64,000 nt of DNA, from assembly GCA_965214705.1 (NCBI GenBank), contig OZ243972.1, forward strand, positions 3,744,001 through 3,808,000. Reading direction: 5' to 3'. Below the pieces are notes generated by a model. That model did not search any database. It worked only from the letters and a program-made list of their open reading frames with translations, and was not told the DNA's origin. Of this stretch, positions 21,990 through 47,382 are shown one piece after another. Position 1 is the stretch's first letter; each line of letters starts with the position of its first letter. Both the position numbers and the translations under genes were made by a program. This stretch comes from Alphaproteobacteria bacterium. GTDB lineage: Bacteria > Pseudomonadota > Alphaproteobacteria > UBA828.

Positions 21990-22075
21990 TTCGAACGGTT
22001 CTAATACTATATTGTCTATTCTATCACATAAAATACTATTGTATCGCAGCTCAAACACAGCTTTTTTGCAAAACC
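21990..22075. promoter_or_regulatory. AT-rich divergent promoter/operator region between SBP and GntR
   Basis: Strongly AT-rich patch; AATACTAT at 22003-22010 and 22032-22039, each followed closely by TTGT. Confidence 0.5.
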
Positions 22076-25033: not shown

Positions 25034-26776
25034 TCAGCGGGGCTCGGCGCGGAGCGCGGCGGTCGCGGCTTCGTCGACGCCGCCGTCGGCGGCGATGATG
25101 ACTCCGTACTGGTCCCGCGCGCGCTCGGTCGAGATGTAGCCGTCGGCGACATCGGCGGCGACCGCGTCTGCCGGGCGGGTGAGGGGATCGCCGAAGCCGC
25201 CGCCGCCGCCGGTCACCACGGCGACGCGGTCGCCCTCGCTCAGCGCCTCGTAGGGGATGCGGGCGACCCGCTTGACGCTGCCGTCGCTCTCGATCCGCAT
25301 GTAGTTGTTGGAGCCTTCGCCGCCGCCCTCCAGGCCCCAGGGACGCTCGATGGAGCGGCCGATGCTGCAATAGGTGTGCGCGTCCGCGCCCGCCACCTCG
25401 AACTCTCGGACCACGCCGAAGCCGCCCCGGTGGCGGCCGGCGCCGGCGCCGTCTTCCACGTTGAGCGCGTAGCGGCGGATGGCCAAGGGGAACTTCGCCT
25501 CGAAGAGCTCGACCGAGTAGTTGTAGGTGTCACCGTCGGTGGTGGCGATGAGTGCGCTGGTGCCGTCGCCCGCTGCGGTCGCGCCCCAGCCGCCGATCGC
25601 GGGCTCGATGTGGACGTAGACCTCGCCGCTCTCCGGATCGCGGCCATAGAAGTAGGTGCCGGCGAGGCTCATGTAGGAGCCCGCGCTGAAGCGCTCGGGC
25701 GCGACCTCGGCGAGCGCCTTCCAGGCGAGCTCGGAGGCGTGGGCGGAGCCTTCGTAATACCAGCCGGTGGGCGCGGGTTTCTCGGCGGTGAAGACGGTGC
25801 CCGGCGGGCAGACCAGGCTCACCGGGCGGAACCAGCCCTCGTTGGAGGGCGCCTGCGGGTCCACCAGCGACTTGAACACGGTCTTGACCGCCGAATCCAG
25901 CGCCCCGAAGGCGCAGTTGATCGGCCCCTTGACCATCGGGCTGGTGCCGGTGAAATCGAAGGTGATCGAATCGCCCCGGATGCGCACGACGACGGCGACG
26001 CGGAAGCGCTCCTCCGAGATGCCGTCGCCGTCGATCCAGTCCTCGGCCGCGTAGTCGCCGTCGGGCAGCGCCGCGACGGCGGCCCGGCTCAGGCGCTCGC
26101 TGGTCTCCAGGATGTGGCCGAAGGTGGCCTTGACCGCGTGGGTGCCGTAGCGGGCGAGGACCTCGTGCAGCCGCGTCTCGGCGATGCGCACGGCGGCCAG
26201 CCCTGCGTTGAAGTCGCCGAGGGACTGCACCGGCAGGCGCACGTTCTCGCGAATCAACGCGATCACGTCGTCGATGGTCTCGTCGTCCCGGCAGACCCGG
26301 ATGCCGGGGAAGTGCACGCCCTCCTGATAGATCTCGGTGGCGGTTGGCGAGATGCTGCCGGGCACGGCGCCGCCGACTTCGCTCCAGTGGGCCACGGAGA
26401 TGGCGAAGGCGAAGAGCCGACCCTCCACGAAGATCGGCTTGATCAGCGCGATGTCGCAGCTGTGGGTGCCGCCCTCGAAGGGGTCGTTGGTCATGAAGAC
26501 GTCGCCCGGCCGCATGGTCTCGCCGTGGCGGCGCACGATGGAGCGCACCTGCGGCGCGAAGGTGCCGGTGAAGAGGGTGATGCCGTTGGTCTGCACCACG
26601 AGCTCGCCGTCCGCGTCGCAAAGGCCGCAGGCGAAGTCCAGCACCTCGTAGATCACGGGGCTCATGGAGGTCTTGGCGATGACGATGCCCATCTCGTCGG
26701 CAAGCGCGAGCAGCTTGCCGCGGATGATCTCGCGCGTGACCGGATCGGCAGCGGACTGGTTAGCGGGTGCGGTCAT
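25034..26776 (-). CDS. hyuB: Second hydantoinase B / oxoprolinase family protein (no adjacent A subunit)
   Basis: DPVTREII..L...ADEMG, SPVIYEVLDFAC, NDPFEGGTH, HWSEVGGAVPGS, EIYQEG, GGGGFGDP; ATG 26776 with GGAGG SD. Confidence 0.92.
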   Translation of the reverse strand: MTAPANQSAADPVTREIIRGKLLALADEMGIVIAKTSMSPVIYEVLDFACGLCDADGELVVQTNGITLFTGTFAPQVRSIVRRHGETMRPGDVFMTNDPFEGGTHSCDIALIKPIFVEGRLFAFAISVAHWSEVGGAVPGSISPTATEIYQEGVHFPGIRVCRDDETIDDVIALIRENVRLPVQSLGDFNAGLAAVRIAETRLHEVLARYGTHAVKATFGHILETSERLSRAAVAALPDGDYAAEDWIDGDGISEERFRVAVVVRIRGDSITFDFTGTSPMVKGPINCAFGALDSAVKTVFKSLVDPQAPSNEGWFRPVSLVCPPGTVFTAEKPAPTGWYYEGSAHASELAWKALAEVAPERFSAGSYMSLAGTYFYGRDPESGEVYVHIEPAIGGWGATAAGDGTSALIATTDGDTYNYSVELFEAKFPLAIRRYALNVEDGAGAGRHRGGFGVVREFEVAGADAHTYCSIGRSIERPWGLEGGGEGSNNYMRIESDGSVKRVARIPYEALSEGDRVAVVTGGGGGFGDPLTRPADAVAADVADGYISTERARDQYGVIIAADGGVDEAATAALRAEPR

Positions 26777-26933
26777 GGTCCCTCCCGGCGCGGGATTGTT
26801 CCCGAGGCTCAGGTGTCGTGCAAGCGGGCGGGTCCGTCCGCGTCGGGCAGGAGACCCCGCACCATGGTGCGGTGGCCGTGGGCACCGGCGGGCGCCACGA
26901 TGCGCCGTTTCGTCCGATACGAAAGGAGTCATC

Positions 26934-27806
26934 GTGGCCACACAGCGACAGATCGAAGCCAACCGCCGAAACGCCCGGTCGAGCACCGGCCCGAAGACCG
27001 AGGCCGGCAAGGCCGCGTCGTCGGCCAACGCGCTCAGCCACGGCCTTACGGCCGCCGACAACGTGGTGCTGCCGGAGGAAGACCCCGATGAATTCGAGCG
27101 GCTCAGGGAGGGCGTGATCGCCGACCTCCAGCCGGCGGGCCCGCTGCAGGAGGCGCTGGCGGAGCGCGTCGCCGTGCTGCTCTGGCGCCTCGACCGCGTC
27201 GCCCGGTTCGAAGCCGGGCTCTTCGTTCACGGCCAACTCACCGTGATACGCGACAGGGTGGGCGACCCGTTTCGTTCTTCAAGCATCTTGCAGGGTCTCG
27301 CCGACCTGCCGAAGGAGGTCACGCAGTTGCAGGAGAAGTGTGCACGGTTCAAGCGCAGGATCGACGAGGACATCCAGGCCCAGGCACCCTCCGCCCAGGT
27401 GCTGGTGGAGCGGCGCCAGAGTGCGCGCGCCTTCGACCAGATTGCGCGCCACGAGGCGATGCTGCAGCGGTCGCTGAACCGGACGCTCGACGAGTTCCGC
27501 CGCTTGCGCGACGCATCGGCTGCGGCAGCCGAATCGAAGGCGCCGCCGCCGGCCGCGCCGGCCGATCCCGACCCTGCGCCGGTTCGCGACGTTCCCCCGC
27601 CTGCGTCTGCGGGCCCGCAGCCGGCCAGCGACGAGACCCGTGGCGAGGCCGGGCGCACGGGCGAAAAGGCGTTTTTGCAAAACGAAGCCAATTCAGCGCA
27701 AACGCCTGACGTGGAAGCCGATTCGAAAGCCGGAACGGAATTACCGCAGGCCGGGACCGGAGGGCCGCCACTCCCAAGAACGGAACTCGCGCCAGGGCAC
27801 GATTAG
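26934..27806 (+). CDS. Hypothetical protein of the MATxxQIxANRRNAxxSTGPKT type, with a Pro/Ala-rich tail containing LQNEANS
   Basis: SD AAGGAG then GTG 26934; STGPKTEAGKAASSANALSHGLTA, LWRLDRV, RHEAMLQRSLNRTL.E..RL. I recognise this as a widespread uncharacterised family. Confidence 0.8.
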   Translation: MATQRQIEANRRNARSSTGPKTEAGKAASSANALSHGLTAADNVVLPEEDPDEFERLREGVIADLQPAGPLQEALAERVAVLLWRLDRVARFEAGLFVHGQLTVIRDRVGDPFRSSSILQGLADLPKEVTQLQEKCARFKRRIDEDIQAQAPSAQVLVERRQSARAFDQIARHEAMLQRSLNRTLDEFRRLRDASAAAAESKAPPPAAPADPDPAPVRDVPPPASAGPQPASDETRGEAGRTGEKAFLQNEANSAQTPDVEADSKAGTELPQAGTGGPPLPRTELAPGHD

Positions 27807-27838
27807 ACCTTACCTGATCGCTGCAGCCCGAAGAGCGC

Positions 27839-28017
27839 CCACCTCCGGCTGTCCCCTTCTAAACCTATACGTTTCCCTCAGTCGGCGGGCGCTCGCATCA
27901 CGCGCCCGCGCGCGTGTGGCCGCGCGACACTCGCTTGCCTACGCGCTTACGCGCGCGGCGCAGTCGCGCCGACCGGGCCTGCGGCCCGGCATGGCGGAGG
28001 GGGACAGCGGGAGGTGG
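27839..28017. repeat. ~180-bp non-coding element bounded by 21-bp imperfect inverted repeats
   Basis: CCACCTCCGGCTGTCCCCTTC (27839-27859) vs GAGGGGGACAGCGGGAGGTGG (27997-28017): 19/21 complementary. Confidence 0.7.
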
Positions 28018-28029
28018 AGCTCCGAAGGA

Positions 28030-29139
28030 TCAGCCGAGGCGTTCGTCGATCAGCCGGTTCACCTCGGTGGCAGCTTCCATCTGGACCATGTGGCCCTGGC
28101 CCTCCATCACCGTGCAGTCCACGCCGTCCGGCAGGCCGTCGGCGTGGGAGGCGGGGATGATCTGGTCGCCCGCGCCCCAGATGACCAGCGTGGGCACGCT
28201 GCCCGCCACGTCGCGCATCGCCTCGGCCTGGGCGCCGCCCGGTGCGAAGGCATCACGGACGGTGCTGAGCGCGGCAGTGACCCCGTCGATCCGCTTGAAG
28301 GCGAGCAGGTCGTTGATGAGCTGGCGGGTCACCAGCGCCGGATCACTGAACAGCTTCTCGACGTGGGGCTTGAGGTCCTTCCGGCGCTCGGCCGAGATGA
28401 AGCCCTCCAGATAGTCCCCGTCGATATCGGAACCCAGGCCGGCGCTGCCGATCACGGTGATCGACGCCACCCTCCCCGGTGCCGCACGGGCCACGGCAAG
28501 CGCGATGGCGCCGCCCATGGAGTGGCCCACGAGATGGGCGGACTCAATCTCCAGGGCGTCGGCGAAGCCGGTGACGATATCGGCGAAGAAGCCGATGGAG
28601 CCGTCGCCCACGTCCTTGCTGGAGCTGCCGTGCCCTGGAAGGTCGAGGGCGTGGACAACCCGCTTTGCCGCGAGCGCCTCGTGGTTGAACAGCCAGTTGT
28701 TGAGATCGCCGCCGAAACCGTGGATCAGGATGACCGGCGTGCCGCCTTCGCCCCGCGTGAGGTAGCGAATCGTGCGCCCAGCGATTTCCACAGACTCGGT
28801 CGCCGGTCCGCCGTCCTCATCGTCGTCCTCGGGCGGCACGAAGTTGGCCTGAAAGTCGGTGACGAAGGCGTCGATATCGGCGTCGGCGACGCTCTCGTCG
28901 GCGACGATGCCGAGCAGGCCGCCGACCGGCAGCACGTCGCCCTCCTGGGCGACGCAACGGCGGAGCGTGCCCGCGTCCGCCGCCTCGACCGCGCTGGAGA
29001 TCTTCTCGGTCTCGATGTCGATGATCTCATCGCCCGGCGTGATCGAATCGCCCTCATCCACAAGCCATCCGGCCACCTTCCCCTCCTTCATGGAGAGGCC
29101 CCATTTGGGCATGCAAACGGTGCGGATGCCTTCGCTCAT
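28030..29139 (-). CDS. acoC: Acetoin dehydrogenase E2-type subunit (lipoyl domain + alpha/beta hydrolase)
   Basis: MPKWGLSM.EG, lipoyl IETEKI, HGFGGDLNNWLFN, GHSMGG, GHMVQME. Confidence 0.92.
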   Translation of the reverse strand: MSEGIRTVCMPKWGLSMKEGKVAGWLVDEGDSITPGDEIIDIETEKISSAVEAADAGTLRRCVAQEGDVLPVGGLLGIVADESVADADIDAFVTDFQANFVPPEDDDEDGGPATESVEIAGRTIRYLTRGEGGTPVILIHGFGGDLNNWLFNHEALAAKRVVHALDLPGHGSSSKDVGDGSIGFFADIVTGFADALEIESAHLVGHSMGGAIALAVARAAPGRVASITVIGSAGLGSDIDGDYLEGFISAERRKDLKPHVEKLFSDPALVTRQLINDLLAFKRIDGVTAALSTVRDAFAPGGAQAEAMRDVAGSVPTLVIWGAGDQIIPASHADGLPDGVDCTVMEGQGHMVQMEAATEVNRLIDERLG

Positions 29140-46847: not shown

Positions 46848-47192
46848 ATGAAGGACATTCTCACCATCAGCGAGCGCGCGGCAGAGCGCATCAACCACCT
46901 GATGTCGCTCCGGCCGGACGATGCCGAGCCCGCCGTCGGCATCAAGATCGGGGTCAGGAACGCCGGCTGCTCCGGCATGTCCTACACCATGGACTATGCG
47001 GAGGAGGTGCCGCCCACTGCCGAGGTGATCACGCAGCGGGGCGTGACAGTGGTGGTGGACCCGGCCGCGGTGATGTTTCTGATCGGTACAGAGCTCGACT
47101 TCAGCGAGGACAAGCTCAGTGCCACCTTCGTCTTCAACAACCCCAACGTCACCAGCACCTGCGGCTGCGGCGAGAGCTTTGCCGTCAACTGA
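46848..47192 (+). CDS. sufA: A-type Fe-S carrier (SufA/IscA, HesB family)
   Basis: GCSGMSY, F.F.NPN...CGCGESF. Confidence 0.93.
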   Translation: MKDILTISERAAERINHLMSLRPDDAEPAVGIKIGVRNAGCSGMSYTMDYAEEVPPTAEVITQRGVTVVVDPAAVMFLIGTELDFSEDKLSATFVFNNPNVTSTCGCGESFAVN

Positions 47193-47242
47193 GGCCGGGC
47201 CGGCGGCAAAGCAAGAAATTACAAAACGAACCCAATTTCGCG

Positions 47243-47255
47243 CAACTTATTGATT
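47243..47255 (-). promoter_or_regulatory. Perfect IHF consensus site downstream of tRNA-Pro
   Basis: Minus strand AATCAATAAGTTG matches WATCAANNNNTTR, inside an AT-rich patch. Confidence 0.6.
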
Positions 47256-47305
47256 TAGAACCAACTTATCACGTGCCGCAGGCCCTCATGTAGGGCCAGC
47301 GGTGC

Positions 47306-47382
47306 TGGTCGGGGTGGCCGGATTTGAACCGGCGACCCTCTGCTCCCAAAGCAGATGCGCTACCTGGCTGCGCCACACCCCG
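47306..47382 (-). tRNA. tRNA-Pro (anticodon TGG)
   Basis: CGGGGTG acceptor, TCTGC-TT-TGG-GA-GCAGA anticodon arm, GGTTCAAATCC T-arm, encoded CCA. Confidence 0.97.

Follow-up and report, generated by a model that had tools for sequence, protein, structure and literature searches.

The question raised by this locus is why a short, AT-rich piece of one hypothetical gene recurs at places where the gene itself is missing. The gene lies at 26934–27806 on the + strand of the window, the whole 64,000-nucleotide (nt) stretch of alphaproteobacterial contig OZ243972.1 analysed here; coordinates are positions in this window, the window's genome is called G000, and other G and L numbers denote sampled genomes and loci. 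The gene starts with GTG and encodes a 290-amino-acid (aa) protein. Its tail contains an AT-rich word, cgTTTTTGCAAAACGAAGCCAATTCAGCGCAAACGCCTGAcg (27670–27712, + strand), within a window with a guanine-cytosine (GC) content of 67%. The original prediction held that the peptide encoded by the word is a by-product of a conserved cis site in the DNA, and that gene and site form a minimal selfish or recombination unit with non-autonomous copies. Our results indicate that gene and word are probably functionally coupled.

Conservation of the word

The codons of the word hardly vary. In a codon alignment of 15 homologues from the genus, with protein identities of 49–96%, Q249 is encoded by CAA in 13/13 sequences, E251 by GAA in 15/15, N253 by AAT in 14/15 and Q256 by CAA in 15/15. 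Outside the tail, the codons of conserved residues end in G/C and vary synonymously in the usual way; glutamine, for instance, is encoded there by CAG in 43 of 45 cases. Nor is the word bound to one reading frame. Of 20 close relatives read, 15 retain a QNEAN-type peptide and three carry the same DNA in another frame (..KTKP..), and other lineages read it as KRSQ, KTNPI or KQTQF. Among distant alphaproteobacterial homologues, L075 has the word twice, in a third frame, and in L076 and L081 it lies 52 and 116 nt past the stop codon.

The composition of the gene changes between its two parts. GC contents at the first, second and third codon positions are 0.74/0.47/0.87 in the region encoding the conserved core (residues 1–200; 26934–27533), which resembles the host genes. 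They are a flat 0.78/0.65/0.70 in the Pro/Ala-rich tail (residues 201–290; 27534–27806), and a like flattening is found in all 15 genus homologues. In the tails of 20 relatives compared, length and sequence are variable except for the word. Since the tail lacks coding periodicity, it is best viewed as DNA of a 3′ non-coding-like kind, whose reading frame remains open in this GC-rich genome. Judged from these alignments, the word is almost certainly a nucleic-acid element. The claims that it is conserved at the DNA level irrespective of frame, and that the peptide is a by-product of a DNA site, are therefore both supported by the frozen synonymous sites, with rare codons retained, by the occurrence in three frames or past the stop, and by the composition of the tail. 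The statement that proteins of this family often end in QNEPN or QNEAN needs amendment: the orphan copies described below do read QNEPNF(A/S)-stop, but close relatives have the peptide inside the tail rather than at its very end (..FLQNEANSAQT..).

A second stretch of the gene resembles the word. The DNA of a conserved N-terminal peptide (..QIEAN..; 26949–26963) is alike in 12 of 15 positions to that of the tail word at 27678–27692 (CAGATCGAAGCCAAC vs CAAAACGAAGCCAAT), and in the AT-richer relatives L074 and L079 the DNA coding for the N-terminus is itself scored as a word. This likeness could reflect chance or the origin of the word.

Dispersal of the word

The predicted match of 22 of 26 positions between TGCAAAACGAAGCCAATTCAGCGCAA at 27676–27701 and non-coding DNA at 47220–47245 was verified. 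The 14-mer CAAAACGAANCCAA occurs twice in the window vs 0 times in 100 shuffles, and genome-wide counting gave 10 copies in the 7.92-Mb genome vs 1 for the reversed control. A word profile finds exactly the same 10 copies, the next-best match having E = 0.74. A third site proposed at 22063–22074 was not confirmed: it shares only the 12-mer and has no match with the profile of the 10 true copies. According to tblastn, G000 has a single copy of the gene, so that nine of the 10 words are orphans; no paralogues behind the orphans were found in G000 by the same search.

The orphan in the window (47200–47270, + strand) has an A-rich 5′ part and an AT-rich 3′ part. It lies between the stop of an Fe-S assembly gene (46848–47192) and the 3′ end of a tRNA-Pro gene on the minus strand (47306–47382), and stands where G008 and G012 have a wordless spacer of 27–33 nt. 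In 59 orphans taken from six genomes of the genus, conservation extends over ~80 nt, which consist of a GC-rich start, an A-run, GAAATTA/G, CAAAACGAA(C/G)CCAATTTC, ..TAAC...TTGAT and an AT-rich end.

Genus orphans lie predominantly in sense orientation behind genes. Of these 59 loci, 50 have the upstream coding sequence on the same strand, 3 have it on the opposite strand and 6 could not be scored; some are orthologous between close genomes, so that the 59 are not independent. The gap from the last sense codon to the word is mostly 22–106 nt with no fixed frame, and the gene downstream may be on either strand (27 +, 23 −). Genes ahead of orphans, as checked with Pfam, include der, rpoD, lipA (with an additional small open reading frame, ORF, between lipA and the word), a CO-dehydrogenase flavoprotein gene, an Fe-S assembly gene, a B12-radical-SAM gene and others. 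Two more, recognised by sequence signatures only, we take to be atpC and a glutamine-synthetase-like gene.

Several simple functions for the word were considered and rejected. A read-through tag is contradicted by the lack of a fixed frame between upstream stop and word, and a promoter for the downstream gene by the variable strand of that gene and by the lack of a sigma-70-like site within 26700–28100 of the window. An attachment site for an integrase, which should lie next to the integrase gene and overlap the 3′ end of a tRNA gene, was dismissed, as only 1 integrase was found among 150 neighbouring ORFs of word loci in other phyla; the window orphan lies 60 nt from the tRNA-Pro gene without overlapping it. 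A structured RNA is likewise not supported. A candidate mini-hairpin centred on TAA pairs no more than in shuffles, RNAalifold found 0 pairs in 30 orphans, and Rfam recovered only tRNAs in the window at gathering score and nothing relevant at E ≤ 1 for 20 loci from three phyla. The word is not in Rfam, and a literature search whose scope excluded subscription journals and supplements found no published description of it.

Two further observations concern the surroundings of the orphans. Near L008 and L009, G000 carries two 99.5%-identical elements with a tyrosine-recombinase-like ORF (C2:371310–372610 and C3:1712490–1713790), which begin downstream of two orphans at distances of 387 and 1015 nt; a connection with the word was not apparent, and the C3 copy appears to be inserted into another transposase-like gene. 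In addition, about one third of 30 aligned genus orphans have a second loose box (..GATCGGGRCGCCG..) ~100 nt past the word (alignment columns 112–128).

Co-occurrence of gene and word

All 19 gene loci of the genus carry the word on the gene strand. Moreover, the number of words in a genome follows the presence of the gene. The eleven gene-positive congeners have 5, 5, 17, 9, 5, 4, 17, 11, 42, 8 and 10 words, and the nine gene-negative congeners 1, 1, 2, 0, 0, 0, 4, 0 and 0. After subtraction of the gene-borne copies, at least three orphans are present in 10/11 gene-positive vs 1/9 gene-negative congeners. Among 300 other sampled Pseudomonadota genomes, the exact 15-mer occurs as one copy each in 6 and is missing from 294.

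The word also occurs in other phyla. When one genome per species was scanned (596 Gb), the 17-mer turned up at no fewer than 120 places, overwhelmingly in Planctomycetota, Acidobacteriota, Verrucomicrobiota and alphaproteobacterial assemblies, often several times per genome and in tandem arrays. Single matches in other taxa are meaningless, because a few hundred chance matches are expected in a scan of this size. All five motif-rich genomes of other phyla that were searched hold the gene family, with 31, 9, 20, 1 and 10 matches, and at 6 of 9 gene loci in motif-rich genomes 1–8 same-strand words lie downstream. For instance, in the planctomycetes G361 and G362 the gene core is followed by 1–8 same-strand words, irregularly spaced at 35–179 nt and none inverted. 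G361 contains 458 words in total. Same-strand words lie within ~1.1 kb at 3/3 of its gene loci examined, compared to a genome average of one word per 17 kb on both strands.

A similar association was found in 60 further genomes of G361's order, a set of unknown completeness. At least five words were present in 9 of the 13 gene-positive genomes (fewer than five in 4) and in 3 of the 47 gene-negative genomes (fewer than five in 44), which gives a Fisher p of 8.5e-6, uncorrected for kinship.

At six loci of the Pirellulales (L085, L105, L109, L128, L130, L151), AT precedes the word, making an ATG, and tandem overlapping copies (AAACGAACCCAAAACGAACCCAAT..) follow ~75 nt downstream of the word. The stretch between the word and these copies is conserved in a coding-like manner (..QMNV....YEN..).

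The protein and its family

The protein has no name in the libraries searched. Nothing lay above threshold in Pfam or NCBIfam, Pfam at E ≤ 1 adding only two sub-threshold chance rows. Profile searches of PHROGs, PADLOC and the PDB gave no match; the sub-threshold rows from PADLOC had a best E of 0.031, and none came from a toxin-antitoxin model. The proposed likeness of its STGP.T..GK segment to HGGxSTG-type proteins found no support in any of these libraries. Yet the family is very large: among the representatives of clusters at 50% identity, 25,999 match at E ≤ 1e-3, and 9,587 still do so at E ≤ 1e-10. Members are usually 200–230 aa long, and the source names in eight family clusters were all 'hypothetical protein' or missing.

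An AlphaFold2 model of residues 1–200, based on 74 sequences, is all-helical with a predicted local distance difference test (pLDDT) score of 87.6. Two short N-terminal helices bearing the invariant residues G19, P20, H36 and G37 are predicted to precede a long helical hairpin; E49, R88 and E93 are also invariant. The N-terminal segment is basic and follows the pattern ANRRNA..STGP.T..GK...N...HGL. Foldseek returned nothing for this model at E ≤ 1e-3. VIA scored generic coiled coils highest, with a Z of 8.0, a result that the tool's note calls uninformative for helical models. Profile and fold searches detected no DDE, HUH, serine or tyrosine recombinase signature in the protein.

The family is patchily distributed, in 10/301 sampled Pseudomonadota genomes and 11/20 congeners. 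An origin from phages or plasmids was rejected. No relative was found among viral contigs or phage records, and 72,556 plasmids yielded just 3 partial matches, one of which was inspected and lacks the word. Hence, these searches do not bear out the 'viral' labels that relatives carry in the Atlas.

Some family members have features of their own. The commonest subclade of the family (soil-metagenome loci L203–L259) has a conserved promoter-like CTACAAT box ~60 nt upstream of the start codon, often preceded by a TGGATG..CATCCA-type palindrome, which suggests a self-contained and possibly autoregulated promoter. In the planctomycete locus L109 (1088–1945), one open frame combines a degenerate family-like N-terminus (..NRRNAPNST..), three words and a Phage_integrase domain (PF00589, E = 6.5e-7).

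The gene unit and its ends

Upstream of the gene lies the predicted perfect 16-nt palindrome, CCGCACCATGGTGCGG, which was verified at 26857–26872. It marks the left boundary of a repeated gene unit. G018 contains ~8 gene copies, three of which are 99.5–99.7% identical over 972–979 bp, and the left limit of homology among six of them is the palindrome. Likewise, homology between G000 and the non-syntenic copies in G003, G007 and G002 begins at window position 26850–26857, and two RNA-library contigs (available as contigs only) break at 26853 and 26855. The right boundary of the G018 units is ~15 nt past the stop codon, after which they run into other repeats. Shorter, internally deleted derivatives of the unit exist as well. 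About 10 copies of a 495-bp non-coding element are present in G018, and one is present in G000 (C3:1711310–1711540); these elements open with the palindrome and the next ~40 nt of the unit's left end, and close in one or two words.

The palindrome is also a separate family of repeats; at ≤1 mismatch it has 76 matches in G000 and 94 in G008, which lacks the gene, compared to 2–6 for controls. We also considered whether these palindromes might be driven by a tyrosine transposase associated with repetitive extragenic palindromes (REP), abbreviated RAYT. This was rejected, as the Y1 domain PF01797 is absent from G000, G018, G003, G008 and G011; the same search detected it in 6/14 control genomes. 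Several G018 gene copies (L027–L030) are furthermore flanked by a ~52-nt GC-rich palindromic repeat (..CCTCACCCCGGCCCTCTCC..GGAGAGGG..), which lies to the left of some copies, to the right and inverted in others, and on both sides in L028.

A comparison of relatives for empty sites gave a candidate that can be read in two ways. In G008, hyuB is followed after 37 nt by the gene that in G006 and G009 lies past the 1.0-kb unit, as expected for an empty site; however, this arrangement may also be a deletion. The gene stands in synteny behind hyuB in seven relatives, with flanks that are 83–96% identical, and is therefore old and resident in this lineage. Of the three observations named beforehand as speaking against a mobile unit, only this synteny was found; the motif does not vary synonymously, and orphans are more frequent than chance.

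Interpretation and alternative explanations

We consider it fairly likely, from the comparative analysis, that gene and word constitute a two-part system of the RAYT/REPIN type (REPINs being REP doublets), in which the protein is helical and unrelated and the site is linear and not palindromic. In such a system, the protein-coding gene would carry one copy of a short cis site at its 3′ end, while gene-less copies would spread through the genome. The helical protein would recognise the linear word on single-stranded DNA or on a transcript, probably via its basic, conserved N-terminal segment, and this recognition would promote the copying or retention of the word. The QNEAN peptide would have arisen by accident, from a frame that happens to be open in GC-rich DNA. 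In the lineage of the window, the gene would now be a resident, vertically inherited copy behind hyuB, and the window would hold one of the nine orphans. The separate steps differ in their likelihood. From the sequences compared, direct binding of the word by the protein seems about evenly balanced, and that the protein mobilises the word seems possible but somewhat doubtful. The orphans' strict orientation in sense and their lack of structure speak for recognition of a single strand, either the transcript or the non-template or lagging-strand DNA, though both could equally result from insertion targeted to terminators.

Several results weigh against this interpretation. Four gene-positive planctomycete genomes have only 0–2 words, three gene-negative ones have 8–26, and the gene-negative congener G014 has 4. 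A family gene lies within 1.2 kb at just 2/80 word loci in other phyla, the neighbours being ordinary housekeeping genes, and a same-strand word lies downstream of only 1/80 family genes from soil metagenomes, in their commonest subclade (an antisense word, of one sequence type, occurs at 3 of these 80 loci). Two gene loci of Bryobacterales lack the word. The rule that words stand in sense behind genes was not reproduced outside the genus, with 12 on the same strand, 17 on the opposite strand and 50 unscorable by crude ORF calls. The genomes compared are kin, and those of the planctomycete order form a set of unknown completeness. Neither terminal inverted repeats nor target duplications were visible at the aligned ends of six G018 copies, at filled and empty sites or at orphan boundaries, and the right end of the unit is fuzzy. 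Finally, the libraries searched assign the protein no enzyme-like motif, no fold and no family, so that a role as transposase is pure inference. The proposed unit of gene and site with non-autonomous copies is thus backed by the co-occurrence in two phyla, the planctomycete arrays, the 495-bp derivatives, the multiple copies in G018 and the possible empty site in G008, but it is at odds with the synteny in seven relatives, the lack of the word in most soil members of the family and the independence of the palindrome.

An alternative explanation might be that the word belongs to a small repeat or mobile element that comes to lie behind genes independently of this family, that family genes have one behind them just as other genes do, and that the co-occurrence merely reflects repeat-rich, transfer-prone genomes. 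This would fit the 78/80 word loci in other phyla that have housekeeping neighbours and no family gene, the 79/80 soil family genes without a same-strand word, the genomes with the word and without the gene (G014, G395, G414 and G419), and the neighbouring palindrome, which is demonstrably a family of its own. Yet, an independent repeat would not be expected to keep a fixed position in the tail of 19/19 genus copies that are 49–96% identical, nor to recur next to the same gene in both Alphaproteobacteria and Planctomycetota. It is also difficult to reconcile with the words near 3/3 gene loci of G361, despite its average of one word per 17 kb, and with the co-occurrence counts. We therefore regard it as unlikely, albeit the strongest competitor. 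A signal in the 3′ untranslated region (UTR) of host transcripts, serving transcript end-formation, stability or a host RNA-binding factor, with the gene as an ordinary user, is clearly less probable still. It would explain the strict sense position 20–110 nt past the stops of der, rpoD, lipA, the Fe-S assembly gene and others, and RNA-library contigs do extend to the gene (contigs only, and hence a weak point in its favour). A host signal, however, should not vary from 0 to 42 copies within one genus, with 0 words in five congeners, or be missing from orthologous spacers in G008 and G012 and from nearly all of the other Pseudomonadota genomes sampled (294/300 for the exact 15-mer), and neither conserved structure nor an Rfam match was found. 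Least probable by far is that QNEAN/QNEPN is a functional short peptide motif and that the likeness to DNA elsewhere is coincidental. The peptide is kept in most close relatives (15/20), but the freezing of disfavoured codons, the word in other frames or past the stop, and nine non-coding copies in the same genome vs 0 expected already contradict this explanation.

Relation to known systems

The interpretation as a two-part system has its closest counterpart in RAYTs and REPINs. In these systems (PMC3116915), a cognate short repeat lies beside the transposase gene, gene-less copies are extragenic, often at gene ends and clustered, and the repeat is tied to the presence of the gene. Inheritance of the gene is largely vertical inside a group, although distant groups show signs of lateral exchange (PMC3116915). 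Our system is alike in the cognate repeat beside the gene (at 19/19 genus loci and as arrays in G361 and G362), in the co-occurrence of repeat family and gene, and in the mostly vertical inheritance within a group combined with signs of lateral transfer between distant groups. RAYTs are IS200-like Y1 (HUH) transposases, and their repeats are imperfect palindromes, mostly arranged as inverted doublets that fold into hairpins. Our system differs in its protein, which is not a Y1/HUH transposase (it has no Pfam match, and PF01797 is absent from five genus genomes), in its word, which is non-palindromic, free of hairpins and without inverted doublets (5 planctomycete loci and 9 gene loci), and in its gene, which is multi-copy in some genomes (G018, G361).

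Other known elements share single features. Like insertion sequences (IS) and the miniature transposable elements with inverted repeats (MITEs) derived from them, the autonomous-looking 1-kb one-gene unit is multi-copy in G018, and its left end and the word persist in shorter derivatives that are non-coding. Unlike in these, no terminal inverted repeats or target-site duplications were visible at its fuzzy ends, there is no recombinase signature, and most orphans (~80 nt) retain the word alone rather than both ends. In Rickettsia, palindromic elements are small mobile repeats, which insert into coding regions and thereby extend the protein by a peptide segment. The same holds for the RU elements of enterobacteria (PMC2759123). 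Our word resembles both in that a repeat read through in an open frame gives a conserved-looking peptide as a by-product of the DNA; these elements are palindromic or MITE-like and are not known to be tied to one gene family, whereas the word sits at one fixed place in one family.

A cis site within the gene of its own protein has a precedent too. Bacillus subtilis has a parS site inside parB (spo0J), in the coding 3′ part of the gene, with a few further copies elsewhere; parS is conserved across phyla and is a palindrome without transcription-sense bias, and the fold of ParB is known. Our word is similarly embedded in the 3′ coding part of its gene, has further copies elsewhere and is conserved across phyla, but it is sense-biased and not palindromic, and the protein has no known fold. 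Type III toxin-antitoxin systems have tandem equal repeats upstream of an endoribonuclease gene, unlike the word arrays, which lie downstream at irregular spacings of 35–179 nt.

Surroundings of the gene

As predicted, the gene is a lone + strand gene in a minus-strand cluster. It is the sole + gene in the stretch from hyuB (PF02538, minus strand) to an acetoin-type E1/E2 cluster; its neighbours comprise hyuB, a luciferase-like monooxygenase gene and the acetoin-type E1-alpha/E1-beta/lipoyl-hydrolase genes. The predicted leader hairpin is also present (26908–26929, + strand), with arms TTTCGT (26908–26913) and ACGAAA (26919–26924) around the loop ccgat, and runs into the Shine-Dalgarno sequence GGAG at 26925. 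Its TTTCGT arm was found in G006 and G009 as well, as far as the compared sequence extends, and the G018 gene copies have another 6-bp hairpin at this position.

To the right of the gene, an imperfect inverted repeat, CGCCCACCTCCGGCTGTCCCC / GGAGGGGGACAGCGGGAGGTGGAG (27836–27856 and 27996–28019), encloses ~140 nt, and contig depth in both DNA and RNA is maximal at 27903–28024. This suggests that the region is another multi-copy repeat. The assembly of G000 comprises 7.92 Mb in 3 contigs with 8.7% marker-gene contamination, and its congeners are smaller (2.8–6.3 Mb).

Implications

A gene with a dispersed cognate repeat is a known kind of system; what is new here is the protein itself and the architecture of its site. 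Relatives of the protein number 25,999 among representatives at 50% identity, the family is nameless in every library searched, and its word recurs letter for letter in several phyla, with up to 458 copies per genome. More tentatively than any of the single steps above, we suggest a new class of selfish system, in which an all-helical protein without known recombinase chemistry would recognise a linear, non-palindromic word of 20–40 nt on single-stranded nucleic acid and drive its copying into the 3′ ends of host transcription units, at least in Alphaproteobacteria and Planctomycetota and probably in Acidobacteriota and Verrucomicrobiota. The strict sense placement behind genes in the genus makes an RNA-level or terminator-targeted mechanism directly testable. 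If gene and word are functionally coupled, they would represent a second, mechanistically unrelated instance of a gene-repeat partnership of the RAYT/REPIN kind. Such coupling would explain many spurious short ORFs and odd tails (QNEPN, KTNPI, KRTQF) in annotations of GC-rich genomes, and would provide a function for a large block of 'hypothetical proteins'.

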